Assembly: GCA_947630135.1 (NCBI GenBank) | Contig: CANRGH010000009.1 | Coordinates: 1,287-65,286, forward strand | Direction: 5' to 3' | From: an uncultured Monoglobus sp. | GTDB taxonomy: Bacteria; Bacillota; Clostridia; Monoglobales; Monoglobaceae | Length of the DNA: 64,000 bases | Shown here: positions 5,502-46,973 of the stretch, piece by piece | Numbering within the stretch: position 1 is the stretch's first letter | Layout of the letters: each line of letters begins with the position of its first letter | Notes under the pieces: generated by a model | Database searches by the model: none | Told to the model about the DNA's origin: nothing | Seen by the model: the letters and a program-made list of their open reading frames with translations, nothing else | Translations under genes and position numbers: made by a program

Positions 5502-5563
5502 GGAAAACAGATTTCCGTAATAAGGATAATACATTACGAACTTTATCATTCACAATGAAATTT

Positions 5564-5599
5564 AAACGGATAGAGAAATCTAAACTCTATCCGTTTTTT
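5564..5599. terminator. Bidirectional terminator between putP and the LRR gene
   Basis: 12-bp stem AAACGGATAGAG/CTCTATCCGTTT plus T run. Confidence 0.8.
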
Positions 5600-5855
5600 C
5601 TATATTACTGTTCACATTTATATTACAAAATAAAACACATACAAAAGGTTTTTGCAATAAATCAGCATCATTTTCACAACTCCGAATGCTATATCCACCT
5701 CGCCTCTTTAGGAAAGTCGGCAGACGGCATCCGGCGAAAAAAGATCACTACTCACTATGTTTCCACCTCTTTCAGCGACAAAATCATTACCACATCATGG
5801 GGGAAGCAATATCGTTTAGTACATATATTTGTATTATGTGAATAATTTCAATTCT

Positions 5856-8800: not shown

Positions 8801-10766
8801 GATAAGGGTCATAAGTATCACCGGGATTATTTTCCTCGATGTCTGAATTATTATCGGGACCGTTGCTATTATAATGAATTGTTACATTATCTATAGAATC
8901 TTCATATGTCACCACAATCGAATCCCATTCTTCTTTACTGCCTTCATAATATATATCAGTAAGATTTGAGCATCCTCTGAAAGCGCTGGTATAAATTTCT
9001 CCTACGCCTCTATGTATAATCAAATATTTTAAATCATAACAAGCGCGAAATTCTAAATGTCCCAGACATTTTAGGCTTCCAGGAACTTCTATTGCTGTTA
9101 ATTCTTCACAATGATAAAACGGCCAAATAGACAAATCTGTTACAGTATTAGGAATTGTATATTTACCGGATTTACCTTCTGGGCAACAATATAATACCGT
9201 TTTAGTTTTATTGAATAATACACCATCATCTGATGAATAATATTGGTTATTTTCAGACACATTAATTGTCTCTAAAGAAGTGCAATTCTCAAACACATTA
9301 TATCCGCCATTTATATCATTTACGTTATCGGGAATCGTAATTTGTTGCAGTTTCCTACATTCATTAAACGTCCAAACGTCAATTATTTTTAAACTGTTGG
9401 GTAAAACAATATTTTCCAAAGATGAACAATGATCAAAAGCTTGTCGTTTAATTTCTTCAACTCCTTCGGGAATAATAATATTTTTTATGCTTGTGCAATT
9501 CATAAAAGCAAATTCATTGATTAATTTAATTTTACCAAAAAAGTTAACATTTTCCAACAATTCACACTTTTTGAACATATTGTCGGAAAGGACATCATTA
9601 TATAAATTAACTGTTTTTAAATTTGTACACTCCTCAAAAAGGCTGTATCCAACACTTGTAACGCTTTTTGGTATACTAGCAATTAATAAATTGCGACAAT
9701 ACGAAAAGGCACTATAATCTATATTGACAACATTTTCAGGAAGATCTATATATAATATTCCAGTACTACGAAATGCGTTATTTCCTATATTAATAAGATT
9801 TTGTGGGAAATTGACAATGGTTAATTTTTTGCACTCCTGAAATGCACAATCGCCAATATCTGTAACTCCATTAGGTATATCAATACTTTCTAATTTGTAG
9901 CAATATCTAAATAGACCCGCATTTATTTTAGTAATTTTGCTGGGCAACTTAATACTAATAATATTTTCGCATTTACGAAAGGCATAGCTGTCAATATTTA
10001 TAACACTTTCAGGAATTATTAATGATTTTAAACCTGTGCATTCATCAAATGCACCATATTCTATAGTCTCAACATTTCCGGATATATTAATATTTGTTAA
10101 TTTTGTATCATAGCTAAATGCATACTTTCCTATGACTTTTACACTTTCGGGAATATCAAATGTATCGGAAGTAGATTTTGGACATCCAATTATCTTTGTT
10201 AAATCTTTATTATATAACACATTATTTCGTACAGAAAAACACTCATTATTGGAATCAACTTTTATTTCAATCAAATTATTACAATTGTAAAAGAAATTGC
10301 CGTCTATCGTTTTCACATTTTCCGGAATATATAAATTTGTTAATTTATCACAGTCATAAAATGCACCTGTTTCTATATGCTCTAAGTTATCGGGCAAATC
10401 AACAGTTGTTAAGTTATCACAGTCGTCAAATGCATGACTGCCTATTTTTATTATTGTATCAGCAAAAACTACACTAGTAAGTCTATTACACCAGTTAAAT
10501 GCATTTTTCCCAATGCTCGTTACTCCATCTTCGATTACCACTTTAGAAATACGACTATGATACCAATTAGGCACACCATCTGTATCCGACATTTCGCCTG
10601 TACCACTGATTGTGAGAGTGCCAGTTTCATCTAATGTCCAAGTTAAATTGTCACCATCAATACCGCATGTACCACTTGATACGGCATTTGCATGTGTTGG
10701 CACAAAAATAATTGTGCCTATCAGTATCAACGACAATAACAAACTTATAATCCTTTTCATAAACAT
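5856..10766 (-). CDS. Large secreted BspA/TpLRR leucine-rich-repeat surface protein (LRR1). Order: signal peptide, N-cap, LRR array, unknown central region, atrophied Ig-like domain, InlB B-repeat, PT/S linker, C-terminal FxW domain
   Basis: Repeats of the form IPxxVxxIxxxAFxxCxxL; GSIITWESNN...VSRP; FDTMGGS...GFIFDGWY...LYAKW; RBS AGGAG. Confidence 0.88.
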   Translation of the reverse strand: MFMKRIISLLLSLILIGTIIFVPTHANAVSSGTCGIDGDNLTWTLDETGTLTISGTGEMSDTDGVPNWYHSRISKVVIEDGVTSIGKNAFNWCNRLTSVVFADTIIKIGSHAFDDCDNLTTVDLPDNLEHIETGAFYDCDKLTNLYIPENVKTIDGNFFYNCNNLIEIKVDSNNECFSVRNNVLYNKDLTKIIGCPKSTSDTFDIPESVKVIGKYAFSYDTKLTNINISGNVETIEYGAFDECTGLKSLIIPESVINIDSYAFRKCENIISIKLPSKITKINAGLFRYCYKLESIDIPNGVTDIGDCAFQECKKLTIVNFPQNLINIGNNAFRSTGILYIDLPENVVNIDYSAFSYCRNLLIASIPKSVTSVGYSLFEECTNLKTVNLYNDVLSDNMFKKCELLENVNFFGKIKLINEFAFMNCTSIKNIIIPEGVEEIKRQAFDHCSSLENIVLPNSLKIIDVWTFNECRKLQQITIPDNVNDINGGYNVFENCTSLETINVSENNQYYSSDDGVLFNKTKTVLYCCPEGKSGKYTIPNTVTDLSIWPFYHCEELTAIEVPGSLKCLGHLEFRACYDLKYLIIHRGVGEIYTSAFRGCSNLTDIYYEGSKEEWDSIVVTYEDSIDNVTIHYNSNGPDNNSDIEENNPGDTYDPYHVRLSYPKKFYVIEDKTLPGTPSTKKSEYAEELYEWAKEFGYDAAITPYEAQEIINKYMPTTVYMDNSMALTADEYTTYDIMRDIIMLNSTLKSVNLWEDEYLKNVDVIDLNKTTDKIKKITAEYTEYISSVERNPMATVIYNIYSQKLVNTAGKYVYKVTKSQLIPDVEMILEEGGINELYSQMTESIAAWKDSGLGSLSGIPSDVYEELKSKSAKTVASEVFKTFINDLGDQYKSVAVIQEAASATKSYISDFKSTSLIAQFAPNTLFEVQLLKLGQKVFETINNVKSAQYFMINYYFKHNAPNIYNKIVDSNGDIVDYIDWIMLINSGEYESSSFANNLMQNWYNTNGNLVDGVDRLELMSLSNNTAQIQLMDINSLRKSVVEYWAEELTMDDKSNNYQIQYTFHKDDSFEIQDSNNSTLGYYNPVDGYKQNFISLASMAVMSDHDEFTVTRDNENSSVCVTTLDKTIKIVAVNQTHPSIVTIVNHDGDVYSLAYQNKNDKKIIYTITSDTIIGIDDSGETLEPLAEYNNNQSRIDLDTNNTKIGYSAGENANNVRSNIELESGGLYGSIITWESNNENIINSDGVVSRPDETQHVSMTATISNGDAHKIKSFELKVIGTDITVDFDTMGGSGVQSQTIKENESANSEIMPQKNGFIFDGWYFDDEYHYPYENQPLTQSVVLYAKWIPDETYVEPTMQPSEMPTTGPSTLPSAFPSVLPTTSPSAAPMVSPSTAPTSSPSATPSVAPTATPIVKPTASPTATPTIAPTATPTASPTVTPLVTPTATPTASPIATPTASPTAIPTASPTVMPTTSPTVTPTASPTVTPTASPIATPTASPTVTPTTSPTATPAASPTAKPTTSPNASSTETPTIQPTAEPTTEPIDNMVYVINDLTFLDENVNVSVSNILGFGAKLIVGSYSSDNVLTDIKSADITTLPGETNNIILKLNLKNAAYVKVFVWDNLDRLEPLAEYVEVSL
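6202..6640 (-). repeat. About 18 degenerate 24-bp tandem repeats encoding (PTASPTAT)-like 8-aa units
   Basis: Recurring GTCGGACTTGCCGTGGGCGTCACA-like unit on the + strand. Confidence 0.9.
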
Positions 10767-10777
10767 ACAACTCCTAA

Positions 10778-10935
10778 ATTAAAAATGCGCGGTGTGAAAT
10801 CACAGCCGCGCAAATAATAAAAACGCAGCTTGATTTCTGTTGCGACACAGTTCATACCGAATCAAGTACGATAATCAACGCTTGCGCTTTTATCAAGCAC
10901 AAACTTGATTCGGTAAATCATTAACTATGCCGCAA
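10778..10935 (-). promoter_or_regulatory. Structured 5' leader ending in an intrinsic terminator (candidate attenuator or riboswitch)
   Basis: 13-bp stem at 10903-10915/10855-10867; terminator GCGCGG-C-TGTGA-TT-TCACA-CCGCGC-ATTTTT just before the RBS. Confidence 0.7.
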
Positions 10936-10939
10936 ATTA

Positions 10940-10968
10940 AATATATCATATCTCAATATAAATAGCAA
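10940..10968 (-). promoter_or_regulatory. SigA promoter of LRR1
   Basis: TTGCTA-17-TATATT with extended TG. Confidence 0.6.
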
Positions 10969-11121
10969 GTATTTTTTAAAAATAAAAAGTGTTCTTCAAG
11001 AAAAACATACGCGAAAAACACTTTAAGAAAAATTTAAAACAATATAGCCGAAACTATGCTTCTACTAACTCAACATATCACCATTTTATTAAACACGCCT
11101 CTACGCGGAGCGTTTTTTTTG

Positions 11122-12951
11122 TTACCCGGCCGCCATGTTGGCGCGGTAGTATCTGCCCTTTTGGGCCATCAGCTCGGCATGATTTCCGCTTTCGCAGATC
11201 TCGCCGTTATGTATCACGATTATGTTGTCCGCGTCGCGGATCGTTGACAGGCGGTGCGCGATCGTTATTCCCGTTCGGTTCTCCATAAGGTTGAGCAGCG
11301 CGCGCTGAATATCCTTCTCGGTTTTGGTGTCGACCGAGCCCGTGGCCTCGTCGAGTATCAGCACAGGGCTGCTGTGAAGCAGCGCGCGGGCTATCGCGAT
11401 GAGCTGCCGCTGGCCCTCGCTCAGGCTGTCGCGGCTGCCCGACACAACGGTATTATAGCCGTTCGGCAAACGGCGGATGAACCCGTCGGCCCTCGCCAGC
11501 TTTGCCGCATTTTTGACCTCTTCCTCCGTTGCCTCGGGGCGCGAATAACGTATGTTCTCAAGTATTGTGCCGGTAAACAGGCAGGTATCCTGAAGCACGA
11601 CCGAAAAGCATTTTTCAAGACTTTCGCGGCGGATGTCGCGGATGTTCACGCCGTCAAGCAAAATCTCGCCGCTGTCCGCGTCATAAAACCTCGTGAGCAG
11701 ATTTATGATCGTTGTCTTTCCGGAGCCAGTTTCGCCGACCAGCGCGACGTTCTCGCCCGGACGCACCTTGAACGAGATATTTTTCAGCACCGGCTTTCCG
11801 GGGATGTATGAAAAGCACACGTTTTTAAACTCGATCCCGCCCTTCATATCGTCCATGGAACGCGCGTCGCCGCGGTCGGGCGGCTCCTCCGCTTCGTCCA
11901 TTACCTCAAACACGCGCTCTGCTCCCGCGAGCGCCGACTGAATATTGTTGAAAAGTCCCGCAATCGAGTTAAGCGGCGTGGCGAACTGCTTTGAGTATGT
12001 CATAAAGCTGACCGCCGTGCCGATAAGCAGACCGTGTCTGGCGCAGAGAATTCCGCCGACTGTGGCGGTTATCGCAAACGTCAGGTTGTTTATAATATTC
12101 ATCAGCGGCATCATATATCCCGCCCATGTCTGCGCGCCCGTGCCGCTTGAGCGCAGATTTTCGTTTATTTCTGCGAACTCATTGAGCTTCGCGTCCTCCT
12201 TTGAGAACGTCTTGATCATTTTAAGGCCGTATATGCTCTCCTCGATAACGCCGCCCAGCTCGCCCAGAGCGCGCTGCTGCTTATAAAAATACCTTCTGCT
12301 CCGCGAAGCGATGACGTTGGTCAGCAAAAACACCATAGGCACGCACACAAGCACGGTCAGAGTCAGCGGAACGCTGAGCGAAAGCATTATCACGAACGAT
12401 CCGATAAGCGTCAGCGCCGCCGAAGCGAGCTGCGTCGCCGACTGCGCGATCGTGCCGCTTATGGTATCGGTGTCGTTGGTGAGGCGGCTCATTGTGTCGC
12501 CCCTCTGCGTGGTATCAAAAAACGACAGCGGCAGCTTTTGCAGCTTTGAGAACAGCTCAAAGCGCAGCGCCGAAACGAGCCGCTGAGATATTTTGAGTAT
12601 CGTCACCGAGCTTATCGTGTTTATTATCCAGTTGGTCACATAAAGGCCGACGATCACGGCTGTCATCGCGTAAAGCAGACCGAGATCGACCCGCATAAGC
12701 TCCGGAATAAACGCGTTGAACGCCTTTCCGACATAAAGCGGGATCAGCACCGAGATGCCCGACGAGATCAGCGTCAGCGCGACCGCGGCAAGCACCGGCT
12801 TTTTGAACCTCAGATACACCGCCATAAGGCGCAGAAGCGTTCCCTTTTGGTTCTTGGCGCGCTCGTTGTTTGAAAACCTCGCGACGCCGCCGACCTTCGG
12901 GCCGCCCATTCTGGGCATTTCCATTTTTTTGTTTCGGTTAATGTCCGCCAT
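11122..12951 (-). CDS. ABC exporter permease/ATPase, consensus-site subunit of a heterodimer
   Basis: Start reassigned to MADIN at 12951; GETGSGKTT, LSEGQRQL, LILDEAT, IAHRLST. Confidence 0.92.
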   Translation of the reverse strand: MADINRNKKMEMPRMGGPKVGGVARFSNNERAKNQKGTLLRLMAVYLRFKKPVLAAVALTLISSGISVLIPLYVGKAFNAFIPELMRVDLGLLYAMTAVIVGLYVTNWIINTISSVTILKISQRLVSALRFELFSKLQKLPLSFFDTTQRGDTMSRLTNDTDTISGTIAQSATQLASAALTLIGSFVIMLSLSVPLTLTVLVCVPMVFLLTNVIASRSRRYFYKQQRALGELGGVIEESIYGLKMIKTFSKEDAKLNEFAEINENLRSSGTGAQTWAGYMMPLMNIINNLTFAITATVGGILCARHGLLIGTAVSFMTYSKQFATPLNSIAGLFNNIQSALAGAERVFEVMDEAEEPPDRGDARSMDDMKGGIEFKNVCFSYIPGKPVLKNISFKVRPGENVALVGETGSGKTTIINLLTRFYDADSGEILLDGVNIRDIRRESLEKCFSVVLQDTCLFTGTILENIRYSRPEATEEEVKNAAKLARADGFIRRLPNGYNTVVSGSRDSLSEGQRQLIAIARALLHSSPVLILDEATGSVDTKTEKDIQRALLNLMENRTGITIAHRLSTIRDADNIIVIHNGEICESGNHAELMAQKGRYYRANMAAG

Positions 12952-12952
12952 G

Positions 12953-14659
12953 CTACACCACCTCCACCGTCTGCGACTCGTATATCTCGCGATAAATCGG
13001 GCAGGTTTCAAGCAGCTCGCTGTGGTTTCCCCAGCCCGCAAGCTCGCCCTCGTCAAGCACCAATATTTTGTCCGCGTCCATTGCCGCCGAGCAGCGCTGC
13101 GTGATGAGGATCACCGTCCGCTTTTCCTTTGATATGTTCGCCTTGACCTTCTTTTCGGTTATCGGGTCAAGAGCGCTTGTCGCGTCGTCAAGCACGAGTA
13201 TCGGCGAGTCCTTCATGAGCGCTCTCGCGATAGAAATTCTCTGCTTCTGACCGCCCGAAACGTTAACTCCTCCGCTGCCGAGCAGACTGTCCGCGCCGCG
13301 CTTCATGCGGAAAACAAAATCCGCCTCCGCGTCTTTGAGCGCGGCCTCGGTTTTCTCGTCCGGCGCGTCGGGATCGCTCCAGTTTACGTTTTCGCGAACC
13401 GTGCCCGAAAACAGCGTCGCCTTCTGCGGCACAAGCGCGATCGCGCGCCTTAATGCCCCGACAGCCATGTCTCGTATGTCGATCCCGTCGATCAGAACGG
13501 CTCCGTCCGTCACGTCATAGAGCCTGAGCAGCAGCCACGCCACGGTCGATTTGCCCGATCCTGTCGGGCCGATTATCGCGAGACGCTCCCCGGGCTTTAC
13601 ATTAAAAGAAAGATGATTGATCGACGGCAGGCCGCTTCCGCCCGGATACGAGAACGTAACGTTGCGGAACTCGATCCCGCCTTTGATCTTCGGCTCCGGG
13701 CCCGCGTTCACAAAATCATTCTCGCTCGCGATAACCTCGCTGACGCGCTCGACCGAGGCGCGGGTCCTGACGAAGGTGTTAAATATGTTGGTGATCATCA
13801 GAAGCGACGAAAGTATCTGCGTCATGTAAACGATAAAAGCCGAGATCTCGCCCGGCTGCGCGAGTCCGACGCCGAACAAGCGGCTGCCGAGCAGCAGCGC
13901 CGCTCCGGTCGCGAACCCTACCGCGAGCGTCAGTATCGGCGAGATCAGCGTGATCACTATCTGCGCGCGGACGCCTTTTCGATAAAGGTCGTCATTCTTT
14001 TCCCTGAACCTGTCAAGTTCCTCGTTATAGGTTCCAAAAGCCTTGACAAGCCGTACTCCCATCAGATATTCCTCAACGGTGGTGTTGAGCTTATCCATCG
14101 ACTTCTGGAGCCTGCGGAACGCGGGATGCGAAAGCCTCATGCTTATGAACAGCAGCACTCCCACGACCGCCACCAGCGAATAGACGATAACGCTCATTCT
14201 GAAATTGAGCATCGAGGCCAGAACAATGCTGCCGACGCAGGTCAGCGGTGCTTTGAAAAAAATCCGCATGGTGCCGTTGGCGAACTGCGTAAGCTGCGTC
14301 ACGTCGTTTGTCATGCGTATAATAAGAGAGCCGCTTTCCAAACGGTCGCAGCTCTCCTGTCTCAAATTCAATATTTTTTTAAAAAGATCATAGCGCAGAT
14401 CCGCGCCGAAACTCTGCGAGGTGCGGCTTGCCAGAATATTGCGCGAAACGGCGAACACCGCGCCGAGAGCGGTGATAAATATCATCCGCAGTCCCCAGTA
14501 ATAAACCGCGGAAACCGAGCCGCCGCCTATTCCCTCGTTTATGATATGCGACATCAGAGTCGGGCCCATAAGATCGCAAAGTGCCTCCAGCGCGACGCAG
14601 ATCACCGCCGCGAAAAAACCATACTTATATTTTCCGAAATAACGCGCGTACAGCTTCAA
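12953..14659 (-). CDS. ABC exporter permease/ATPase, degenerate-site subunit
   Basis: GPTGSGKST, VSGGQKQR, degenerate LVLDDAT and ITQR (TM287/EfrA-type); TTG start. Confidence 0.92.
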   Translation of the reverse strand: MKLYARYFGKYKYGFFAAVICVALEALCDLMGPTLMSHIINEGIGGGSVSAVYYWGLRMIFITALGAVFAVSRNILASRTSQSFGADLRYDLFKKILNLRQESCDRLESGSLIIRMTNDVTQLTQFANGTMRIFFKAPLTCVGSIVLASMLNFRMSVIVYSLVAVVGVLLFISMRLSHPAFRRLQKSMDKLNTTVEEYLMGVRLVKAFGTYNEELDRFREKNDDLYRKGVRAQIVITLISPILTLAVGFATGAALLLGSRLFGVGLAQPGEISAFIVYMTQILSSLLMITNIFNTFVRTRASVERVSEVIASENDFVNAGPEPKIKGGIEFRNVTFSYPGGSGLPSINHLSFNVKPGERLAIIGPTGSGKSTVAWLLLRLYDVTDGAVLIDGIDIRDMAVGALRRAIALVPQKATLFSGTVRENVNWSDPDAPDEKTEAALKDAEADFVFRMKRGADSLLGSGGVNVSGGQKQRISIARALMKDSPILVLDDATSALDPITEKKVKANISKEKRTVILITQRCSAAMDADKILVLDEGELAGWGNHSELLETCPIYREIYESQTVEVV

Positions 14660-14699
14660 GAATGCGCCTCCAGTTCCAACCGCCTAACCCTGTTTATTT

Positions 14700-16187
14700 T
14701 CAATCATCGACCGTGATCAATCCCCTTGACATCTTCGCGTCGAGTATCCTCATCACGCAGCCGTCGATCTGCTCGACCGGGATACGGCCGTCTGCCACGG
14801 CTGTTCCGATCGCGTAATGCGCCTCATTTATGTCGGACGGCATAAGCAGGATGTCAACGCCCGCCTGAACGGCCGAAACGCAGGCGTCGGTCGTGGTGTA
14901 TATTTTGCTTATCGCGCCCATGTTGAGCGCGTCAGTCATAATGACTCCGCTGAAGCCGACGTCGTTCCTCAAAAGCCCGATCATCATGGACGACAGCGAC
15001 GCGGGCAGATCAGAGCCCGTAACCTTCGGCGCGGAAATGTGGCCGACCATGGCGAAATCGGCGTCCGCCTCGGCGCCCGCGCGAAACGGCAGGAACTCCG
15101 TTCCCGAAAAGTCCTCAAGCGTCCTGTTTGTCATGACAAATCCGTCATGAGTGTCGCCGCTCGCCGAGCCCATGCCCGGAAAATGCTTTATGCACGCGCT
15201 TACGCCCGCGGCCTGCATGGCCGCAATCTCGCTTGAAACCATCGACGCGACAATGTTCGCGTCAGAGCCGAACGAGCGGCTGCCAAGCGCGGAAGAGCTT
15301 ATAACGTTCACGTCCGCGACCGGCGCGAAATCGAGGTTCACGCCGTATTCTTTAAGGTTTGAGCCGAGAGTTGTTCCGACCTCGGCGGCCTTTTGCGGAT
15401 CGCCCGTGCTTCCGATGTCTCTCATGGGAGGCATCTCGGGGAAGCCTATGCCGGCCTTGCCCAGCCTCGCGACGGTGCCGCCCTCCTCGTCAATTCCGAT
15501 AAGAAGCGGGGTCTTTGAGTAGCTCTGCGTGTTTGAGATCATCTGCTTGAATTGATCCGCGCTCTCGATATTCTGCGCGAAATATATAAGTCCGCCGACC
15601 GGATACGCGGCGAGCGCATTCTGTGTCGTCTCGCCGGCCGACACAACCGTGTCGACCCCGGTAATGCTCTCGGGCGTCACGATCATCATCTGATATATCT
15701 TCTCGTCAAGCGTCATGCCCGCGACTCTGTTTTTCAGGCTGTCAAGACGGGCATGAGCGCCGATGTAGGCCGATTTTGTGGGATCATCCCACTCGACATC
15801 ATATCCGAACGCCTCCGAAACCGCACGAAGAGGTATAAGCGTCCTGCTGTGCTGCGCGTCGATCATCGGCGCCGCGTCAAGCGGAACGCTTTTGCTTCCG
15901 ACGTACATGGTGCTGCTGCCGATCGTGAGGCTCACGGTCGTGCCGTCCTTGGCGCCGATAGCCGTCCTCGTGCCCGAGTCCCAGCTGACCTCCGCTCCAA
16001 GCGCCTCAAAAATCGCCCGCATGGGGACAAGAACTCTGCCCCCAAGAATAACAGGATCGGCGTCAAATGAAAGCTCGCCGTCGTTCACATAGACCGTAAC
16101 AATGTTGTTGTCCGCCGCGTATGCCGCGCCCGAAAACACGGTAAGCGCGATACACGCCGAAATAATCGCAGCAAAAAATTTTTTCAT
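14700..16187 (-). CDS. Secreted GH3 beta-N-acetylhexosaminidase (NagZ-like) with an N-terminal copper-amine-oxidase-N cell-surface domain
   Basis: Signal peptide; GRVLVPMRAIFEALGA; IGIDEEGG, KHFPGMG...DTH, MTDAL nucleophile. Confidence 0.87.
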   Translation of the reverse strand: MKKFFAAIISACIALTVFSGAAYAADNNIVTVYVNDGELSFDADPVILGGRVLVPMRAIFEALGAEVSWDSGTRTAIGAKDGTTVSLTIGSSTMYVGSKSVPLDAAPMIDAQHSRTLIPLRAVSEAFGYDVEWDDPTKSAYIGAHARLDSLKNRVAGMTLDEKIYQMMIVTPESITGVDTVVSAGETTQNALAAYPVGGLIYFAQNIESADQFKQMISNTQSYSKTPLLIGIDEEGGTVARLGKAGIGFPEMPPMRDIGSTGDPQKAAEVGTTLGSNLKEYGVNLDFAPVADVNVISSSALGSRSFGSDANIVASMVSSEIAAMQAAGVSACIKHFPGMGSASGDTHDGFVMTNRTLEDFSGTEFLPFRAGAEADADFAMVGHISAPKVTGSDLPASLSSMMIGLLRNDVGFSGVIMTDALNMGAISKIYTTTDACVSAVQAGVDILLMPSDINEAHYAIGTAVADGRIPVEQIDGCVMRILDAKMSRGLITVDD

Positions 16188-36976: not shown

Positions 36977-39040
36977 TTAATCTTCCTCTTCTTCACTTTC
37001 CTCGTCATCGTTTGACTGCGACCGCGAGCCGCTGGTTGACGAGCCCGATCGTCTGTTCGAGCCGGACGAGCTTGACGACGCTCTTGACGAGACGCTGACG
37101 CCGTAGTTAACGTCAATCCTCCTGTTTTTGTTTTTTATTGTGGAGTGGACCCTGTCCATGACCGTTTTCCATACCGGTATGCAGGGGTTTGAGGACATCT
37201 CGATCGACTGCGGCGTGTCGTAGCCGTACCATACCGCCGCGACATAATACGGAGAATAGCCGACAAACCATCTGTCAAAATTCTCAGAGGTCGTTCCCGT
37301 CTTTCCGGCGGTGAACGTTCCGTCCGCGAGCGCCGCGCCGCGGCCCGTGCCGCTTGTGACAACGCTGCTTAAATATCTGTTCATGATCGCGGCCGTCTCG
37401 GGCTTGATCGCCTGCCAAGACGCCTCGTGGCCGGTCAGTATTGTCTCGCCGTCGCTGTTCTTGATCTCGGTGAAGGTGTAGGGCTTGTTATAAATTCCCT
37501 GGTTCGGGAATATGCAGTAAGCCGCGGTCAGCTCCACATTCGTCATGCCATGAGTAAGTCCGCCGAGAGCGAGCTGCGCGTAGCCCAAGTCGGTGTATAT
37601 ATCGCCGTTGATGTCCTCAGCCTCAACAAGCGTGGTAACGCCGAGCTGCTGGGTCATGAAGTCGTAAGACGTCTGAATTCCCATTTCTGACATGATCTCG
37701 ACCGGAACCGTGTTGAGCGACTGCTGGATCGCGTAATCAAGACCGACGCGGCTGTTTGAATAGGTATAGCTCGAGTTACGCGGTATCCATCCGTCGTAAG
37801 ACTTCCGCGCATCCATAACGGTCGTGCCCGGGCTTATCGTGCCGTAGTCAAGCGCCGGGGCGTAAACCGACAGGGGCTTGATCGACGAGCCCGGCTGTCT
37901 GGGGCTCTGCGCCGCGCGGTTGAGCGTGAAGCTGTTTTCCTTGGCCCCGATGCCGCCCGCCATAGCGACGATCCTGCCGTCCTGCGGATCCATAATAACT
38001 ATTGTGGACTGCGCCGACGGGTCGGGGAAGTTGTTCTCGTTATAGTAATAATCCTCGACGATCTGCTGTATCTCGGGGTCATACGCGCAGTATATCTTAA
38101 GTCCGCCAGAATAAACCATCTTTGTGGCGAGAGTCTCGGAATATCCCTTTTCCTCAAGCCTGTCGACCGCGTCGCGCACGACCTGATCGACGTAATACGA
38201 GGTTATGATCTCCTCTTTTTTATTAAGCGCGGTGTCCTTGCTGAACGTCAGCGGAAAGTTTACCGCCTCGTCATACTCCTCCTGGGTTATATATCCCAAA
38301 GACAGCATTTTTGCGAGGACAAGCTCCTGGCGCTCCTTGTTGTTGTCGGGGTTAACGAACGGGTCGTAATATGTCGGGTTCTGGGTGATCGCCGCGATCG
38401 AGGCGCACTCCGCCAGATTAAGCTGGCTCACATCTTTGTCAAAATAAAGATTCGCGGCCGTCTGAACGCCGTAGCAGTTCTCGGAAAGGCAAATGCAGTT
38501 CATGTAAAGCTCAAGGATCTGTTCCTTTGAAAGCTGCTTCTCAAGGTCGATAGCCTTGGAGATTTCCGCAATCTTTCTGGCGACGGTCTGATCCTTGTCG
38601 CCGGTCAGATTTTTTATAAGCTGCTGGGTTATAGTGCTTCCGCCCAGAGACGCCTGTCCGCCCTTTCCGCTGACCTTATCAACAAAATAAGTCAGCGTCG
38701 CGCGGACGGTGCGCATTATGTCAACGCCCTTGTGGGTCATAAATCTCTCGTCCTCAATGGCAACAAAGGCGTTCTGGAGATTTTTCGGCGTCGCGTCAAG
38801 CTCGACCCAGACTCTGTTTTCGTCCGACGTCAGGGTGAGCATCGTACGCTCCTCGCCCGTATTCGGGTCAAGATATACAATGTCGGAATTGCGGTTCATC
38901 GTGAGCGTGTCAATATCAATTCCGTCAACGTTGCCCCACATTCCCATAACCGCGGTAATAACGGCGCCTCCGGCAACAGCGCCGCCGATTATCAGCGTTA
39001 TGAGAAATACCAAAATAAATCTGAATACATACTTTTTCAT
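36977..39040 (-). CDS. Class A penicillin-binding protein (PBP1A type)
   Basis: EDERF, GSTITQQL transglycosylase motifs; SSIK, SLN and KTG transpeptidase motifs. Confidence 0.93.
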   Translation of the reverse strand: MKKYVFRFILVFLITLIIGGAVAGGAVITAVMGMWGNVDGIDIDTLTMNRNSDIVYLDPNTGEERTMLTLTSDENRVWVELDATPKNLQNAFVAIEDERFMTHKGVDIMRTVRATLTYFVDKVSGKGGQASLGGSTITQQLIKNLTGDKDQTVARKIAEISKAIDLEKQLSKEQILELYMNCICLSENCYGVQTAANLYFDKDVSQLNLAECASIAAITQNPTYYDPFVNPDNNKERQELVLAKMLSLGYITQEEYDEAVNFPLTFSKDTALNKKEEIITSYYVDQVVRDAVDRLEEKGYSETLATKMVYSGGLKIYCAYDPEIQQIVEDYYYNENNFPDPSAQSTIVIMDPQDGRIVAMAGGIGAKENSFTLNRAAQSPRQPGSSIKPLSVYAPALDYGTISPGTTVMDARKSYDGWIPRNSSYTYSNSRVGLDYAIQQSLNTVPVEIMSEMGIQTSYDFMTQQLGVTTLVEAEDINGDIYTDLGYAQLALGGLTHGMTNVELTAAYCIFPNQGIYNKPYTFTEIKNSDGETILTGHEASWQAIKPETAAIMNRYLSSVVTSGTGRGAALADGTFTAGKTGTTSENFDRWFVGYSPYYVAAVWYGYDTPQSIEMSSNPCIPVWKTVMDRVHSTIKNKNRRIDVNYGVSVSSRASSSSSGSNRRSGSSTSGSRSQSNDDEESEEEED

Positions 39041-39198
39041 TTTAAAACCCCTTAAAATAATGCGCAAAAATTCACAATATACATATTATATACCATAATT
39101 ATAACATTTCTGCAAGTATATTAAACGATTTTTGTGTTAATAATCTATTAAATTAGTGTTACACAAAAAGGCCAAATACAAGATATGGGGGTATAATT

Positions 39199-39603: not shown

Positions 39604-39716
39604 AATCACGCCGATTTCATGTGAAACTCCGTAGTTTTCGTTCCCGCGGTTCTGAGTCCTAAATAATCACATTGCGCAGTTTGATGATCAATTCGCGGAC
39701 TTTTTGCAAATAGGTA

Positions 39717-39745
39717 TTTACAAATTAATCCTAATATGTTATAAT
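39717..39745 (+). promoter_or_regulatory. SigA promoter upstream of the LRR2 leader
   Basis: TTTACA-17-TATAAT with extended TG. Confidence 0.75.
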
Positions 39746-39751
39746 AATTGC

Positions 39752-39964
39752 GCTACATGTCTTAAATATTGTGTTTGTGCCATTATTGTGTATATGGTTT
39801 TATTTTCATATTTTCGGAATCCGTTTGCGAAAATGCAGACTCGAACAATTCCGAAAATGTGTAACATAGACACAATAGGTTTTAAGATGTGTAGCAGCAT
39901 AAAGTTCGAGCTGTGTTTTTATATTTTTGCGCAGCCGCGATCTCTTGGCTGCGCTTTTTATTTT
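39752..39964 (+). promoter_or_regulatory. Structured 5' leader ending in an intrinsic terminator (candidate attenuator, riboswitch or sRNA)
   Basis: Nested stems 39752-39766/39881-39895, 39767-39774/39870-39877 and 39810-39820/39848-39858; terminator GCGCAGCC...GGCTGCGC-TTTTTATTTT. Confidence 0.7.
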
Positions 39965-40040
39965 CTGTCAAAAACATGGACGCGGCAAGAACGTTCGAAA
40001 AAATATATTAATAATTATAATATACATGGAGGCAAGACAA

Positions 40041-42848
40041 ATGAATAAAAGGCTCAAAAGTATCGTATTGGCGCTTTTTATACTCTGCACGGCACTGCCC
40101 GACGGAATAAAAGCGTATGCCGCGGAGCAATACGAAACTGCGGAAACATCCCTTGTTGATGAAGCCGCGCTGTCGGACGGCTCGGCGGAGACCGCCGAAG
40201 TGGTCGACGGTATCACCTTGGAATACGACTCAACAAGCACCGAGTACACCAAGCTGGTACATGTGCGCTATAACGCTTCAAAGTTCACAAAAGGAATAAG
40301 CCGCTTTAAGATCATACTGAGGATTTTGGGCGGAAGCGTGGCAAGCGTCGACTATAAGACCGAATTTTCGTCAAGGTTCAGAATAAACGGCTCTTATTCT
40401 GGCGGCATTTACACAATAAGCGGCTCGTCAAGCTCGGCGGAGGTTCCCGGCGACGGCTGCTTGTTCACCGCCGTTCTGAACCTTTCAGACGCGCTGACCG
40501 CGCCGATCGCGATAAGCATCACAGGAGACACATATCTGGGCGATCCGACAACCGCTTATTATCTCAGCAACGGCGGTTTGAGCGACGCGTCAACCGAGAT
40601 ACCGATAATGAGCGGCCAAGCGGGCTGGACGACCGACACATCCGGCACAATAGGAAACGTGGTTTGGGCGTACAGCAAAAACACTCTGACTCTAAGCGGC
40701 GAGGGCAACATGCCCGACTTCACGGCGGGAACCGCTCCGTGGTACAAAAACGGAAAAAACCTCATCAAGCATATCGTGTTCACCGATAACAGCAATATAG
40801 TGTCCGTCGGTGCTTACGCGTTTTACGGCTTGAGCGCGCTTGAGGACGTCACATTCGTTGATAAGATCAACACGGTGGGCCGGAACTCTTTTGAAGGCTG
40901 CTCGTCTCTCAAAGAACTGAACATTCCCACCAACATGCACGCCGGAATTGGCGAGGAGGCATTCAAAGACTGCGTCTCTATAAATGAGATATTTATACCG
41001 AACGGCATGCTCGCCGTCAGCAAAGGCGCGTTTAAGGGCTGCACCGGCCTCAACAAGATAACAATGCCGTTTATCGGCTCGCAGGTCGGAACCTCTAACA
41101 ACACCAACACGTTCGTCTATCTTTTTGACGGTTATGTTCCGATGAGCCTCAAGACGGTCGTTATAACAAATGAGACGGATATTCCCGCGGAGGCCTTCAA
41201 AGGCTGCTCGGGCATAACATCGATCACGATAAATCCCGAGATAAAAACTGTGGGCGTGTCGGCCTTTGACGGCTGCTCGTCGCTCGGCACATTTAATATT
41301 CCCGACGGCGTCTCCGTTATAAACGACAACACATTCAGAAATTGCTCATCTATCCGCTCGATAACCGTGCCCGACACGGTGCGGGCTATCGGAGAAGGCG
41401 CGTTTGACGGCTGCGCTTCGCTCGGCTCGATACATATTCCCGAAAGCGTTACCGAAATAAAGAATTACACATTCCGCGGCTGCGCGTCGCTGACAGAGAT
41501 CAAAATCCCCTCGGGCGTCACCTCGATCGGCGAGGAAACGCTCAAAGGCTGCTCAAGGTTAACGAGCATTGTCATACCTTTCGTCGGCGCGTCATACAGA
41601 CCGGGTCTGAGCGAGATCACGCATGCCGGAGTGTTCGGCTATCTGTTCGGAAAGTCAACGTCGCAGACCGCGACTAGGCAGGGAAACGACAGTTATGAGA
41701 TCCCGACGTCCGTCACAAAGGTTGAGATCACAAACATCGACTCGAGAGCCTACATACCTCCCGGCGCATTCATCAACTGCTCGAATATCGCGGACATCAT
41801 AATCGACGGCGGCGCCACGGTATGCGCCGAGGCCTTCAAAAACTGCCGCAACCTGAAAAATCTGTACATTCCGAAATCTATTGACGAGATCCAGCGCGAT
41901 ATACTTTACGGATGCACGAGCCTCGTGACTCTGACCGTGCCCTTTGTCGGAAACAGCAGAACAGACTTAAATCATGAGACCTCGGTTCTCGGATATTTCT
42001 TCGGTTTTGGCGACAATCGCGAGAACGAGACCGACATAATCCAGTATTACAACGAAAACGACTTCCATTACTATTTTGTGCCGGAGTCTCTGAAGAACGT
42101 TTCGGTGCTCAATAAAACAAACATACCTTACGGAACGTTTATGAACTGCCGCTACCTTGAAAGAGTGTCAATAGTCAGCGGCGCGGTGATAAACGCCCAC
42201 GCGTTTTACAACTGCGTGTCTTTGAAGCAGGTATCGCTGCCTTCAAACCTGACCGAGATCGGATATGAGACATTCGCGGAATGCGCGGCGCTTGAGACGA
42301 TCAATCTCCCCGCGGTAAGGAACCTTAAGTTAGGCGACTACGCGTTCTACAACTGCACGGGTCTTCGGAACATAACTATCCCGCCCAACGTAAAATCGAT
42401 CTCCGAGAGCGCGTTCATCGGCTCGGCGATCGGGGCGGCCGACACCGCCGAAGCTGCTGCAAGCGACGTGCTGACCATTTATTGCGAGAGCGGCTCATAC
42501 GCCGAGGAATACGCCAAAGCAAACGGAATAAAATATGAGATCGCACAAAAGGGCGAACTGAACATTATAAAAACAATGACAAGCGTGAGCCGCCTGTCTG
42601 ACGGCGCGTATCTGTTCGATGTGACCGACTCAAATCTGATGAGCGGAACGGTGTTCGCAGCGCTCTACGACAAAAACGGCGCGCTGATAAGCGCGCAATG
42701 CGCTCCCGCAGAGGCTGCAGCGGACGCGAGATTTATTTTCAGTGCCGAAGATTATCAGAACGCGGCCGAAGCCAAAGCCTTCATCTGGAGCGGAACCGAC
42801 ACTATAACGCCGAAGACCACCGAAGCGGAGATCATCGAGCTTAGATAA
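40041..42848 (+). CDS. Secreted BspA-like LRR surface protein (LRR2) with a cohesin-like N-terminal module and a C-terminal FxW domain
   Basis: Start at 40041 after GGAGG; signal peptide; LRRs with PF(I/V)G insert repeats. Confidence 0.87.
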   Translation: MNKRLKSIVLALFILCTALPDGIKAYAAEQYETAETSLVDEAALSDGSAETAEVVDGITLEYDSTSTEYTKLVHVRYNASKFTKGISRFKIILRILGGSVASVDYKTEFSSRFRINGSYSGGIYTISGSSSSAEVPGDGCLFTAVLNLSDALTAPIAISITGDTYLGDPTTAYYLSNGGLSDASTEIPIMSGQAGWTTDTSGTIGNVVWAYSKNTLTLSGEGNMPDFTAGTAPWYKNGKNLIKHIVFTDNSNIVSVGAYAFYGLSALEDVTFVDKINTVGRNSFEGCSSLKELNIPTNMHAGIGEEAFKDCVSINEIFIPNGMLAVSKGAFKGCTGLNKITMPFIGSQVGTSNNTNTFVYLFDGYVPMSLKTVVITNETDIPAEAFKGCSGITSITINPEIKTVGVSAFDGCSSLGTFNIPDGVSVINDNTFRNCSSIRSITVPDTVRAIGEGAFDGCASLGSIHIPESVTEIKNYTFRGCASLTEIKIPSGVTSIGEETLKGCSRLTSIVIPFVGASYRPGLSEITHAGVFGYLFGKSTSQTATRQGNDSYEIPTSVTKVEITNIDSRAYIPPGAFINCSNIADIIIDGGATVCAEAFKNCRNLKNLYIPKSIDEIQRDILYGCTSLVTLTVPFVGNSRTDLNHETSVLGYFFGFGDNRENETDIIQYYNENDFHYYFVPESLKNVSVLNKTNIPYGTFMNCRYLERVSIVSGAVINAHAFYNCVSLKQVSLPSNLTEIGYETFAECAALETINLPAVRNLKLGDYAFYNCTGLRNITIPPNVKSISESAFIGSAIGAADTAEAAASDVLTIYCESGSYAEEYAKANGIKYEIAQKGELNIIKTMTSVSRLSDGAYLFDVTDSNLMSGTVFAALYDKNGALISAQCAPAEAAADARFIFSAEDYQNAAEAKAFIWSGTDTITPKTTEAEIIELR

Positions 42849-42883
42849 AAACCGAATGGCAAACGCCGGAAAGGGATGAAAAT

Positions 42884-45800
42884 ATGAAAAAAATTAAAAA
42901 CAAAGCATTATGTTTGATTATGGCAATGATTATGACGGCGCTTACGATCCCCGCCGCCGCTATCGCCGCGGAAGATAATGGCCCACAGCAGGAAAATTCC
43001 GTATATGACTCACCCGCATTAACCGACGAGCACTCTGCTGACGAATACGCCGTAGACGAGCACGCCGTAGACGAATACGCCGAGGCGGCCGCAACCAACG
43101 GCGTTTGCGGCGAAAACTTAACATGGTCATACAGCGGCTATACCTTAACCATTAGCGGAACCGGCCCGATGTATGATTTTCAAGATAGTGCTCCTCCATG
43201 GAGCAAATTCAGCGCCCTGTTCCCGGGTGATATAAAAAAAGTTATCATTAGCGACGGTGTGACTTCGATCGGCCATAATGCGTTTGATAACTGCAGTTTG
43301 CTGACAAGCATAACAATACCAAACAGCGTGACTTCGATCGGGAGTCGTGCGTTTCTTGCTTGTGATTCGCTGACAAGCATAACAATACCCGACGGCATGA
43401 CTTCGATCGGTGATGGTGCGTTTTGGGCCTGCAGTTCGCTGAAAAGCATAAACATACCCGACAGCGTAACTTTGATCGGCGAACTGGCGTTTACATATGC
43501 AGCTTTATCCAGAATAAATGTTGCGGATAATAACCCAAATTACACATCAAAAGACGGTGTTCTTTTTACCAAAGATATGTCAACGCTCGTATGTTATCCG
43601 CCGAAAAAAATGACATCCGATTCGTACAACATACCAACCGGCGTGACTTCGATCGGCGATCATGCGTTTATGAAGTGCGATTCGCTGACAAGCATAACAA
43701 TACCCGACAGCATGACTTCGATCGGTTATGAGGCGTTTTATAGGTGCAGTTCGCTGGCAAACATAAATATACCAAGCAGCGTTACTTCAATTAGTAATAG
43801 TGCGTTTTATTGCTGCTATTCGCTGACAAATATAACTATACCAAGCAGCGTGACTTCAATTGGTAATAGTGCATTTCAAAGCTGTATATCATTGAAAAGC
43901 GTTACCATATTTAATTCGGAAGTCTCTTTATTAGGTAACGCTGTATTTAATGATTGTCCTTCGGATATTGTGATCAGAGGCGTCAAAGGCTCAACAGTCG
44001 AGGAATACACATATGCAAACAATATTACATTTAATGCTTTGGGATATATTTCTCTTGAGCTCATAGACAATGACGACAGCGATAGCCTGACGGATTTCCG
44101 CATAGCGGCCGCGCTTAACGGTTTCAGCGCTCCGGACAGCGTGAATATCGCGCTCAGTCTGCCGAAGGGAGCGCAGGTAAATGCGAGTACGCCGACAGCC
44201 GGCGCGGAAGGCCTGCTCACCGTCGAGGACGACGGCAGCGTTTCATATCTTCTCACCTTGCCGGAAACTCCGGTCTCCGACGGCGTTATCGCCGAGTTTG
44301 ATATTAAGCTTGAGAGCATGCTTGTCAAACTGTTTGAAGCGGAGCTGCTTGACGGAACCTATGTTATGTCCGGCGAGGAGACATTAAGCATTTCGGACGG
44401 CTCGCTTATGCCCGCCTCACTGACTCTGCCCGTCGGTCTTGAGAGCGGCACGGGCGGCACAACCGGCGGCTTTAGCTGGGACTTTACCGGCGACACGCTG
44501 TATTTAAACGGAACCGGCGAGCTTCCGGATTATGAGGAAGGCGGCGCGCCTTGGTTCTACGGCGCGAGCCAGATAAAGCACATTGTTTTCATGAACAACG
44601 CGGTGACGGCAATAGGAAAAAACGCGTTTTTCGGCTTGCATAACGTGATCGACGCGAATATGCCCTCCGGGCTGCTGGCCGTCGGCGAAGGCGCGTTCAA
44701 CGGCTGCAAGAGCCTTCAGAGCGTTGACTTTACCGAAAACATGAGCGAGGGCATAGGCGCGAGAGCGTTTAAGAACTGCTCATCATTAACCGAGATATAC
44801 GTTCCCGAACGCGTCAGCGTTATAGGCGAGGGCGCGTTTGAGGGCTGCGCGGGACTCACCGCCATCACTCTTCCATTTGTCGGATCACAAGTGGGAAGCC
44901 TTAACAACACCGACACCTTTAATTACATATTCGGCGGCGCCGCGCCCGAAAATCTCACCACTGTCACGATAACCAACGAGGTGAGCCTGCCGCAAAGCGC
45001 TTTTGAAGGCTGCGGTCATATTAAAGAGATCAATCTGCTGACCGATATGCAGGACATAGGCGAGGCGGCTTTCAAAGACTGTGAATCACTCGAAAAATTC
45101 GATATTGACAACGGAATAACCACGATCAGAGATTACACCTTCCAAAACTGCGCCTCGATCACTTCGATAACCGTGCCCGACACAGTGCAGAATATAGGCG
45201 AGTCGGCGTTTGACGGCTGCAAGAGCCTTCAATCGGTGCATATCCCCGACGGAATAACAATAATCAGAAACAGGACGTTCAAAGACTGCGCCTCGATCAC
45301 GTCGATCGAAATACCCGAAAGCGTTACCGCCATAGGCGAGGAAACACTCAAGGGCTGCATAAGACTTCGGACGATGGTGATCCCGTTTGTCGGCTCGTCA
45401 TATAACCCCGGCATGAGCGGCATCAATTACGAAGGAGTTTTCGGATACTTTTTCGGCAAGTCAACGTCGGAGACCGCGACAAAGCAAGGCAGCGACAGCT
45501 ATGAGATACCGCCGGCCGTGACAAAGGTCGAGGTGCTGAACACGGATCCGTCGTCATACATACCGCCGGGCGCGTTCATCAACTGCTCGGGCATAGCGGA
45601 CATTCTGATAGACGGCGGAGCGAAAGTATACGCGGAAGCCTTCAAAAACTGCCGCAACCTTAAAAATCTGTATATACCCAAGTCGATAGACGAGATAAAA
45701 TCGGACATACTCTACGGATGCACAAGTCTTGAGACGCTGACCGTGCCGTTTACCGGAAGCGACAGAAACGATCTGAACACCGAGACATCGGTTCTGGGCT

Positions 45801-46732
45801 ACTTCTTCGGCTACGGGCCCGAGACAAACGTAACCGACGTTAAGCAGCAGTACAGCAGCAACAGCAATGACACGCACTTCTACTACATACCGCGCTCGCT
45901 GAAGAATGTGTCTGTGCTCAACAAGACAAATATATCCTACGGAACGTTTATGAACTGCCGCTATCTTGAAAGCATATCAATAGTAAGAGGCGCGGTGATA
46001 GACGAAAAGGCGTTTAACAACTGCTCGGCGCTTGTGAACGTGTCGCTGCCTTCGGATCTGACAGAGATCGGCTATGAGGCCTTCGCGGAGTGCGCGAACC
46101 TTAAAACGATAAACCTGCCGTTCACGAACACAAGCCTTGAAATAGGGGACTACGCGTTTTACAACTGCCTTAACCTTGAAGAGATAAGAGTTCCGTCAAA
46201 TGTCACCCGGATCGCGGACAAGGCGTTTATCGGCTCAAATATATTCCGCACGAGAGCCGCGGACGCGGCCGAGGCAGCGGCTGACGCGCCGATATTCTAT
46301 TGCCAGTCGGGCTCATACGCGGAGGAATACGCGATCCAAAACAACATCAATTACGAGACGATAAGCGCAGACGAGCTGAACGTCAAAACAACGTCGACGA
46401 CTGTGAGCGCGCTGTCGGACGGATCGTGCCTGTTTGACATAATAGACACGAGCGGACTCGGAAGAGGCGTGTTATTCGCGGCGCTTTACGACAGCGAGGA
46501 TAATTTGCTGAAGACCGAAACGCGGACTGTAAAGACCAATGACGCGGTTGAAACAAGAATAGAGATGCCGAAGTCGGAATGGTACGACAGCGGAGCCGCA
46601 TACGCAAAGATATTCCTTTGGGACAGCGTTGACGAGATGACACCGCTTTCAACCACGGTCGAGCAGATAGAGATGAGCCAAGTCAGACAAGAATACGAGT
46701 CCATGCCCGTCCCCGAAACTCCCGACATTTGA
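42884..46732 (+). CDS. Secreted BspA-like LRR surface protein (LRR3): an extra N-terminal LRR block plus a paralogue of LRR2
   Basis: Signal peptide; GVCGENLTW cap; IPDSVTSIGxxAFxxC repeats; second cap GGFSWDFTGDTLYLNGTGELPDY. Confidence 0.88.
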   Translation: MKKIKNKALCLIMAMIMTALTIPAAAIAAEDNGPQQENSVYDSPALTDEHSADEYAVDEHAVDEYAEAAATNGVCGENLTWSYSGYTLTISGTGPMYDFQDSAPPWSKFSALFPGDIKKVIISDGVTSIGHNAFDNCSLLTSITIPNSVTSIGSRAFLACDSLTSITIPDGMTSIGDGAFWACSSLKSINIPDSVTLIGELAFTYAALSRINVADNNPNYTSKDGVLFTKDMSTLVCYPPKKMTSDSYNIPTGVTSIGDHAFMKCDSLTSITIPDSMTSIGYEAFYRCSSLANINIPSSVTSISNSAFYCCYSLTNITIPSSVTSIGNSAFQSCISLKSVTIFNSEVSLLGNAVFNDCPSDIVIRGVKGSTVEEYTYANNITFNALGYISLELIDNDDSDSLTDFRIAAALNGFSAPDSVNIALSLPKGAQVNASTPTAGAEGLLTVEDDGSVSYLLTLPETPVSDGVIAEFDIKLESMLVKLFEAELLDGTYVMSGEETLSISDGSLMPASLTLPVGLESGTGGTTGGFSWDFTGDTLYLNGTGELPDYEEGGAPWFYGASQIKHIVFMNNAVTAIGKNAFFGLHNVIDANMPSGLLAVGEGAFNGCKSLQSVDFTENMSEGIGARAFKNCSSLTEIYVPERVSVIGEGAFEGCAGLTAITLPFVGSQVGSLNNTDTFNYIFGGAAPENLTTVTITNEVSLPQSAFEGCGHIKEINLLTDMQDIGEAAFKDCESLEKFDIDNGITTIRDYTFQNCASITSITVPDTVQNIGESAFDGCKSLQSVHIPDGITIIRNRTFKDCASITSIEIPESVTAIGEETLKGCIRLRTMVIPFVGSSYNPGMSGINYEGVFGYFFGKSTSETATKQGSDSYEIPPAVTKVEVLNTDPSSYIPPGAFINCSGIADILIDGGAKVYAEAFKNCRNLKNLYIPKSIDEIKSDILYGCTSLETLTVPFTGSDRNDLNTETSVLGYFFGYGPETNVTDVKQQYSSNSNDTHFYYIPRSLKNVSVLNKTNISYGTFMNCRYLESISIVRGAVIDEKAFNNCSALVNVSLPSDLTEIGYEAFAECANLKTINLPFTNTSLEIGDYAFYNCLNLEEIRVPSNVTRIADKAFIGSNIFRTRAADAAEAAADAPIFYCQSGSYAEEYAIQNNINYETISADELNVKTTSTTVSALSDGSCLFDIIDTSGLGRGVLFAALYDSEDNLLKTETRTVKTNDAVETRIEMPKSEWYDSGAAYAKIFLWDSVDEMTPLSTTVEQIEMSQVRQEYESMPVPETPDI
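43025..43084 (+). repeat. Four 15-bp tandem repeats (DE[HY][SA][AVE])
   Basis: GACGAGCACTCTGCT GACGAATACGCCGTA GACGAGCACGCCGTA GACGAATACGCCGAG. Confidence 0.9.
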
Positions 46733-46789
46733 GGAAAATCTATAATATTATCAAACGCAAAAAAATTAATTTCTTCCCAATTTAAACGC

Positions 46790-46817
46790 AAAGAGGCAGG
46801 CTCCGGCCTGTCTCTTT
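46790..46817 (+). terminator. Terminator of the LRR2-LRR3 operon
   Basis: AAAGAGGCAGG-CTCCGG-CCTGTCTCTTT. Confidence 0.8.
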
Positions 46818-46973
46818 CTCTTCTTCCTCTTTCGGGAAATTTTCTTTTTTTAAAATACGGTAAATTTTCTTTTTTAAAATAACTGTTGAATTTATCTGTA
46901 TTGTTATGTTATAATATTATTTATGCACATAAACGAAGCAAATAAAAATTTCAGACACAACGGAGATGATATT

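Follow-up and report, generated by a model that had tools for sequence, protein, structure and literature searches.

A nearly fixed DNA framework and variable dipeptides among the repeats of the N-terminal LRR_5 module of LRR3, a predicted secreted protein of an uncultured Monoglobus sp.

Leucine-rich repeat (LRR) proteins of the BspA/TpLRR type (Pfam LRR_5, PF13306), represented among solved structures by 4H09, 4GT6, 4FS7, 4CP6 and 6MLX, are among the largest families of gut-bacterial surface proteins, and to our knowledge almost no ligands are known for them. They are also the closest described relatives of the element considered here, the N-terminal repeat module of LRR3, a gene located in a 64,000-nucleotide stretch (the window) of contig CANRGH010000009.1 (positions 1,287 to 65,286) from assembly GCA_947630135.1 of an uncultured Monoglobus sp. 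The module shares with them the 23-residue unit LxxIxIPxxVxxIGxxAFxxC, the caps, the long unit of the 'DGVL..YP' kind, the fold and a secreted gut-bacterial context (predicted in the present case), and it is matched by 412,274 cluster representatives; nothing essential differs, although here the repeats are relatively young, the codons atypical and a second, older LRR_5 module lies behind. Among its repeats the DNA framework is conserved while two dipeptides per unit vary strongly, namely those at the x positions of IGxxAFxxC (unit codons 15, 16, 19 and 20, hereafter the xx codons). This pattern is probably the outcome of ordinary germline LRR evolution, in which repeats are duplicated and the two exposed dipeptides of each unit then come under diversifying selection; the module in question has atypical codons and belongs to an accessory surface-protein island.

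Comparable combinations of constancy and variation have been described elsewhere. In plant NLR and Cf-type LRR proteins, as well as in the FGxxFN (FNIP) families, variation at fixed x positions has been read as diversifying selection after duplication and exchange, whereas here the protein is bacterial and predicted to be secreted, and the variation lies among the repeats of one gene and not among alleles. Transcription activator-like (TAL) effector repeats also have a constant DNA framework in which a dipeptide at a set position varies, a likeness that is strongest in the relative locus L036 (see below); in LRR3, however, there are two dipeptides per unit, the repeats form a beta solenoid and not a helical array, and no DNA-binding code is implied. 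Lamprey variable lymphocyte receptors (VLRs), pilE/pilS, vlsE, tprK and diversity-generating retroelements (DGRs) are alike in appearance alone (conserved framework, hypervariable slots); in contrast to these, no donors, reverse transcriptase, adenine bias or within-sample heterogeneity were found for LRR3 in the window, the source-sample contigs and the open reading frames scanned. No new diversification machine is revealed, and the case is best regarded as a quantified example, from the BspA/LRR_5 family, of the usual LRR rule of a fixed framework and fast exposed positions, which is described in general form in the plant NLR literature.

LRR3 and its parts are as follows:
42884..46732, + strand: LRR3 gene (1282 aa, predicted secreted, two BspA-type LRR_5 domains; open reading frame and translation)
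43025-43082, after the predicted LRR3 signal peptide: acidic, DEY/DEH-rich linker made of a 15-nt in-frame repeat, ~3-4 copies (Tandem Repeats Finder, TRF; translation)
43100..44040, + strand: N-terminal LRR_5 module of LRR3 (N-module), a complete capped domain, residues ~73-385
43232..43507, + strand: units U1-U4, 69 nt each, starting at 43232, 43301, 43370 and 43439 (codon-aligned table, TRF period 69)
43508..43615, + strand: long unit NNPNYTSKDGVLFTKDMSTLVCYPPKK... ('DGVLF..YPP'), which breaks the 69-nt register (translation)
43616..43891, + strand: units U5-U8, starting at 43616, 43685, 43754 and 43823 (codon-aligned table)
44498..46228, + strand: C-terminal LRR_5 module of LRR3 (C-module), paralogous to LRR2, the neighbouring LRR_5 gene (protein alignment with LRR2; ~70% DNA identity over 1315 nt)

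LRR3 matches Pfam LRR_5 with 518.5 bits (gathering cutoff 27.7) in seven stretches. Judged from the translation, its N-terminus, MKKIKNKALCLIMAMIMTALTIPAAAIAAE, is hydrophobic and signal-like, and no anchor motif is seen in the translated protein. LRR3 is probably an adhesin or binding protein. In the N-module, eight 23-aa units and a single long one are enclosed by an N-cap (CGENLTW..TLTISGTGPM) and a C-cap whose end reads ..EEYTYANNITFNAL. The 23-aa unit can be written as LxxIxIPxxVTSIGxxAFxxCxS, the core residues being supplied by the framework, and the pattern L..I.IP..V..IG..AF..C is present in all eight in-register units. When the N-module was compared with solved structures by phmmer, 4GT6 and 4FS7 were found at E~1e-53 (4GT6 at E=1e-53), followed by 4H09, PcpA (4CP6) and TpLRR (6MLX); the long-unit element also aligns in 4GT6 and in protein P0009. 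A single-sequence AlphaFold (AF2) model of the module has a predicted local distance difference test score (pLDDT) of 80.5, a predicted template modelling score (pTM) of 0.80 and three short strands per unit, and its best structural neighbour in Foldseek is 4H09 (E=1e-15, TM 0.72). By profile, unit and fold, the N-module is thus a self-contained BspA-type solenoid domain (Pfam LRR_5, TpLRR class). The statement, made in a preliminary description of this DNA, that the x positions line the known ligand-binding face of such solenoids goes too far: that they do so is not established, and the matched solved LRR_5 structures include no ligand complex.

The core observation of that description, a fixed framework with variable xx dipeptides, is confirmed and statistically solid. 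Between the two 78-nt stretches to which it drew attention (43364-43441 and 43679-43756) there are indeed nine differences, of which eight fall in codons 15, 16, 19 and 20 (DG/WA versus YE/YR; Fisher p=1.8e-7 for the clustering), the ninth being a Gly/Ser change at unit position 9. The slot pairs given for the eight units also agree with the codon table (HN-DN, SR-LA, DG-WA, EL-TY, DH-MK, YE-YR, NS-YC and NS-QS), and the reported recurrence of anchors in a 69-nt register was found again with GTGACTTCGATCGG, which matches seven times in the cassette (at most two mismatches) and once more in the neighbouring LRR2, the chance expectation being 0.53 matches per whole window. TRF places arrays of period 69 at 43252-43479 and 43631-43884. 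The mean pairwise difference of the four xx codons is 0.66 per base, a value reached by only 5 of 8855 possible four-codon sets, and the most variable unit codons in the N-module are 20, 19, 22 and 16.

Among the framework codons of the units, in turn, are some that are identical even at synonymous sites, rare choices included: framework ACT is found in 8/8 units, a codon used for 7.6% of Thr in neighbouring genes, and framework CCA in four of the seven units having Pro at that place (2.3% in neighbouring genes). Since these rare synonymous codons are shared, codon bias cannot explain the common framework, and the likeness is accounted for by shared ancestry or homogenisation. Specificity is probably set mainly by positions 15, 16, 19 and 20, with smaller contributions from 22, 8 and 5; a map of such residues is the practical value of the analysis. 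Equivalent positions of a solenoid lie on top of one another, so that the two dipeptides of successive units would line up as a pair of neighbouring stripes of variable side chains, by which binding specificity would be set.

The history of the units can be followed best in a duplicated block:
43328..43441, + strand: first block copy (U2 positions 10-23 plus U3; DNA alignment)
43643..43756, + strand: second block copy (U5 positions 10-23 plus U6), at an offset of 315 nt (DNA alignment)

The duplication spans ~2.3 units (roughly 43313-43470 versus 43628-43785), and the likeness of U3 and U6 is part of it. Its 114-nt core contains 19 differences, of which 16 lie in eight xx codons (24 bases), two at synonymous third positions and one is the Gly/Ser change, i.e. 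16/24 xx bases differ as against 3/90 framework bases (Fisher p=4e-11). The units are related by internal duplication, this ~2.3-unit copy at a 315-nt offset being the clearest event, since which change has piled up nearly only in the xx codons; the process would be a germline one, following the classical LRR mode, neither programmed nor somatic.

Divergence rates were obtained from U2-U4 and U6-U8, six units of full length whose alignment is complete. In the N-module the proportion of synonymous differences (pS) in the framework is 0.43 and the framework ratio of nonsynonymous to synonymous divergence (dN/dS) is 0.16, while the nonsynonymous proportion (pN) of the xx codons reaches 0.68, near saturation; after correction, the ratio of xx dN to framework dS is ~2.8. 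In the controls, i.e. the LRR3 C-module and LRR2, framework synonymous sites are saturated (0.70-0.72; C-module pS 0.72) and the ratios are 0.4-0.6, so the N-module stands out by its comparatively young or homogenised repeats. The saturated framework synonymous sites mark the repeats of the C-module as old. As regards the recombination with diversifying selection claimed at the outset, the repeat-level duplication (the 315-nt block) stands, and the concentration of divergence in the xx codons fits either selection or framework homogenisation, but the VLR-like repertoire that was to follow from it is not supported.

Several points weigh against duplication followed by diversifying selection. 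In the block core all eight xx codons have changed, with every base replaced in three of them, against two synonymous changes, and this is extreme for stepwise point mutation. The ratio above 1 is based on few sites (~10 synonymous sites per pair), and gene conversion keeping framework synonymous sites low would also yield it. The pattern is moreover uneven, as U7 and U8 both have NS in the first dipeptide, yet show five synonymous framework differences. The conspecific and related loci obtained through UvrB synteny are devoid of LRR genes and give no true allelic series, and a search for RNA runs found none.

The main rival is concerted evolution, in which the xx differences are old and the framework is homogenised by gene conversion or unequal crossing-over among units, perhaps also among paralogous modules, while selection rejects any overwriting of the dipeptides, much as in TAL effectors. 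It would account for framework synonymous sites that are unsaturated in N-type modules although those of C-type modules from the same genes are saturated, for the presence of all four gametes of TGT/TGC x TCG/TCA among the window units, and for locus L036, where dozens of units in two genes have frameworks 95-100% identical in DNA and xx codons that are half different. In the 114-nt block, however, identical framework pieces of 7-17 nt are interleaved with the eight changed codons, so that contiguous conversion tracts would need very many events, and although U3 and U6 taken together look TAL-effector-like (framework 100% identical, xx 33%), unit-to-unit identity over the whole array is only 52-87%, far below TAL-effector-like homogeneity. 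We regard this explanation as possible, though rather unlikely.

It may also be asked whether the variation has any adaptive meaning, as unconstrained xx codons could have drifted to saturation with purifying selection holding the framework. The low framework dN/dS and the fact that the xx positions are the most variable ones across the whole family would both agree with this, but neutral sites cannot outpace the synonymous sites of the same units, and in the block ~2/22 synonymous sites have changed compared with 16/24 xx bases, the module-wide ratio being 2.8. Mere drift is therefore an improbable explanation.

A like pattern is found well outside this species. A framework-pattern search supplied 24 LRR_5 reading frames of unrelated metagenome loci as controls, and in these the amino-acid entropy peaks at unit positions 19, 16, 22 and 15. 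When young unit pairs were defined as those with at least 85% framework identity, three of these frames (L006, L013 and L004) provided 31 such pairs, which differ by 0.49 per base at the xx codons and by 0.11 per base in the framework. Their differences are most frequent at positions 15, 16, 19 and 20, with 0.42-0.59 per base, framework positions having 0.03-0.18. The closest relative locus, L036 (JGI 3300010163), comes from a 40% GC organism and was fetched via homology of the C-part and not via the framework; it provides 199 young pairs by the same threshold, many of them at 95-100% framework identity, with 0.53 differences per base at xx and 0.085 in the framework. In L036 an LRR2-like gene is followed by a gene for a 2028-aa protein and then by a third LRR gene, and the 2028-aa protein combines four N-type modules and a long linker of the PEPPT kind with a C-part that shares 49% identity with LRR3, from which it follows that the arrangement of N-module plus C-part is old. 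Units of the adjacent genes at 4013-10099 and 10163-15028 of this locus were also seen to have frameworks of up to 100% DNA identity with half of the xx different. The xx slots of such units are filled mostly by D, Y, N, S and G. A composition rich in these residues is typical of binding surfaces.

As the pattern recurs in unrelated LRR_5 genes and is much stronger in L036, it points to a germline mode shared by the whole family, made up of repeat duplication or homogenisation together with diversifying selection at the exposed dipeptides. Literature searches brought up no paper describing such xx hypervariability for bacterial LRR_5 genes. It is very unlikely, but has been kept in view because several unrelated genes combine frameworks 95-100% identical in DNA with xx codons that are half different, that the N-type LRR_5 modules of gut Clostridia are subject to an undescribed family-wide mechanism which rewrites the xx dipeptides much faster than point mutation. 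Very short templated micro-conversions among the many units and paralogues that a genome contains may be a candidate route, as may a targeted mutator of unknown kind, and if such fast rewriting were true, the modules would amount to a bacterial repertoire of binding proteins whose specificity changes quickly.

The preliminary description had gone further and seen in the cassette a VLR-like diversification giving a modular receptor repertoire. A programmed system, in which an expression site is rewritten from silent donors (as in VLR, pilE/pilS, vlsE and tprK) or by a targeted DGR-like mutator, would indeed produce a fixed framework with a few saturated codons, and like anatomy is present in other LRR_5 genes. 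However, blastn of the cassette against the remaining 63 kb of the window gave no donor cassette, even at word size 7, and none was present in the source-metagenome contigs (Logan contigs, the best run of which recovers 93-98% of the words of LRR3), where nothing at or above 80% identity was present beyond pieces of 33-96 nt (~81-90% identity, with unlike flanks) belonging to other LRR genes. A DNA search pattern made of the framework, the xx codons being left as N, returned 20 loci from metagenome contigs, the best at ~73% over 120 nt or ~80% over 49-55 nt, and a scan of 185,579 species genomes (the source genome evidently not being among them) with the protein pattern of the N-module gave a single match of 37% identity. 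The proposed check for silent donors has thus turned up short pieces in the source contigs, but no donor sharing the framework in the window and nothing closer in public collections.

No machinery was seen either: Pfam detected no RVT (reverse transcriptase) family in 23 large open reading frames of the window, a few frames of 150-470 aa being outside the scan, and no recombinase was present among the large frames scanned. The changed bases show no adenine specificity (none of eight are A in the direction U3 to U6 and three of eight from U6 to U3). The exclusion of a DGR in the preliminary description is upheld on both grounds, and this candidate was rejected. Furthermore, LRR3 shows no difference at all in L001, an independently assembled contig, where the 15-nt linker repeat is also the same, no copy-number variation having been seen so far; the cassette is the same in contigs from four runs of one source sample, without variant contigs, although rare variants are masked in contigs of ~5x depth; and in conspecific strains the gene is missing altogether. 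A programmed mechanism is thus extremely unlikely, and the VLR-like reading is unsupported.

The comparison of alleles across strains proposed at the outset could be made in part: LRR3 is identical in L001, five conspecific assemblies are without LRR genes, and an allelic series was not obtained. Two further sequences deserve mention. In L002 (ENA ERZ27249603), a 2x-coverage assembly of the same strain, a 33-nt in-frame deletion (44167-44199) affects the linker after the N-module and TCG is changed to a TAG stop at LRR3 codon 890 (45552), which represents either a pseudogenised variant or an assembly error. In run X5, from a second rabbit-gut sample of another study, pieces of LRR2 and of the LRR3 C-part were found at 98-99.7% identity and ~3x depth, coverage of the cassette being too sparse; judging by these pieces, an island-bearing strain ~1% diverged exists elsewhere.

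The cassette had also been described as AT-rich, and the spot counts given for this were all reproduced (GC 23/60 at line 43741, 19/60 at 43861 and 41/60 at 44161). The N-module has a GC content of 0.43 and a third-position GC content (GC3) of 0.44, compared with a GC3 of 0.67 for the linker, C-module and C-terminus of LRR3, 0.65 for LRR2 and 0.70 for 19 neighbouring genes, and GC3 steps from ~0.33 to 0.70 within ~50 nt at the end of the C-cap, ~44045. The low GC of the module is thus a codon-usage effect. GC3 also varies within the N-module: U2-U3 and U5-U6 have values of 0.50-0.61, whereas the long unit and the segment formed by U7-U8 and the C-cap have 0.31-0.39 (p=0.001). From this composition we infer that the N-module has a history different from that of the rest of LRR3, and it was most likely swapped in as a module from a lower-GC relative with like gene architecture, which is plausible; it counts against this part of the preferred account that no source was found, the best identity among the 412,274 matching cluster representatives being at most 57%. 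A recent fusion of the N-module onto an LRR2-like gene was also considered and is weakened by P0009, in which N-type modules stand ahead of a like C-part.

The setting of LRR3 in the window is as follows:
39641..46865, + strand: island of 7225 nt (promoter and leader, LRR2, LRR3, terminator; no mobility gene)
39927-42848: LRR2, second LRR_5 gene (Pfam scan)
36977-39067, - strand: class A penicillin-binding protein (PBP; Pfam scan)
5856-10766, - strand: third LRR_5 gene (Pfam scan); its 1636-aa product also has aBig_2, Flg_new and an extended PT-rich linker

The order of genes around LRR3 is class A PBP, a 134-aa open reading frame, LRR2, LRR3, uvrB and uvrA. In the five conspecific assemblies without the LRR pair (L024, which is GCA_947624305.1, L025, L026, L027 and L029), whose syntenic loci were fetched through UvrB relatives, the order is PBP, 134-aa frame, uvrB and uvrA. 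The flanks of L024-L027 are 95-96.7% identical to the window, and in them 72 nt with a terminator hairpin replace 39641-46865; in more distant relatives (UvrB 93%, 90% and 89% identical) other genes occupy the site of the island. A near-repeat, AAATTTTCTTTTTT, occurs at 46837 and 46862, by the right junction. The LRR2-LRR3 pair is therefore a strain-variable accessory island, newly seen here, and as it is absent from conspecifics, the population variation that is documented consists in presence or absence of the gene pair and not in a switching cassette. The runs holding the sequence are rabbit gut metagenomes, and a strain-variable gene pair in a rabbit-gut species fits a niche- or host-specific adhesion role. 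UvrB of the window is 84% identical to that of Ructibacterium gallinarum (Oscillospiraceae), and the host is described as Oscillospiraceae-like.

LRR2 and the C-part of LRR3 (41329-42619 against 45135-46437) are tandem paralogues with ~70% DNA identity. Near-identical protein stretches (e.g. YIPPGAFINCS..KNCRNLKNLYIPKSIDEI) stand amid far more diverged ones in them, and gene conversion between the two genes may have taken place. The third LRR_5 gene of the window has a GC content of 0.36 and a GC3 of 0.28, as against a GC3 of 0.70 in neighbouring genes, and judging by this composition it was probably acquired horizontally.

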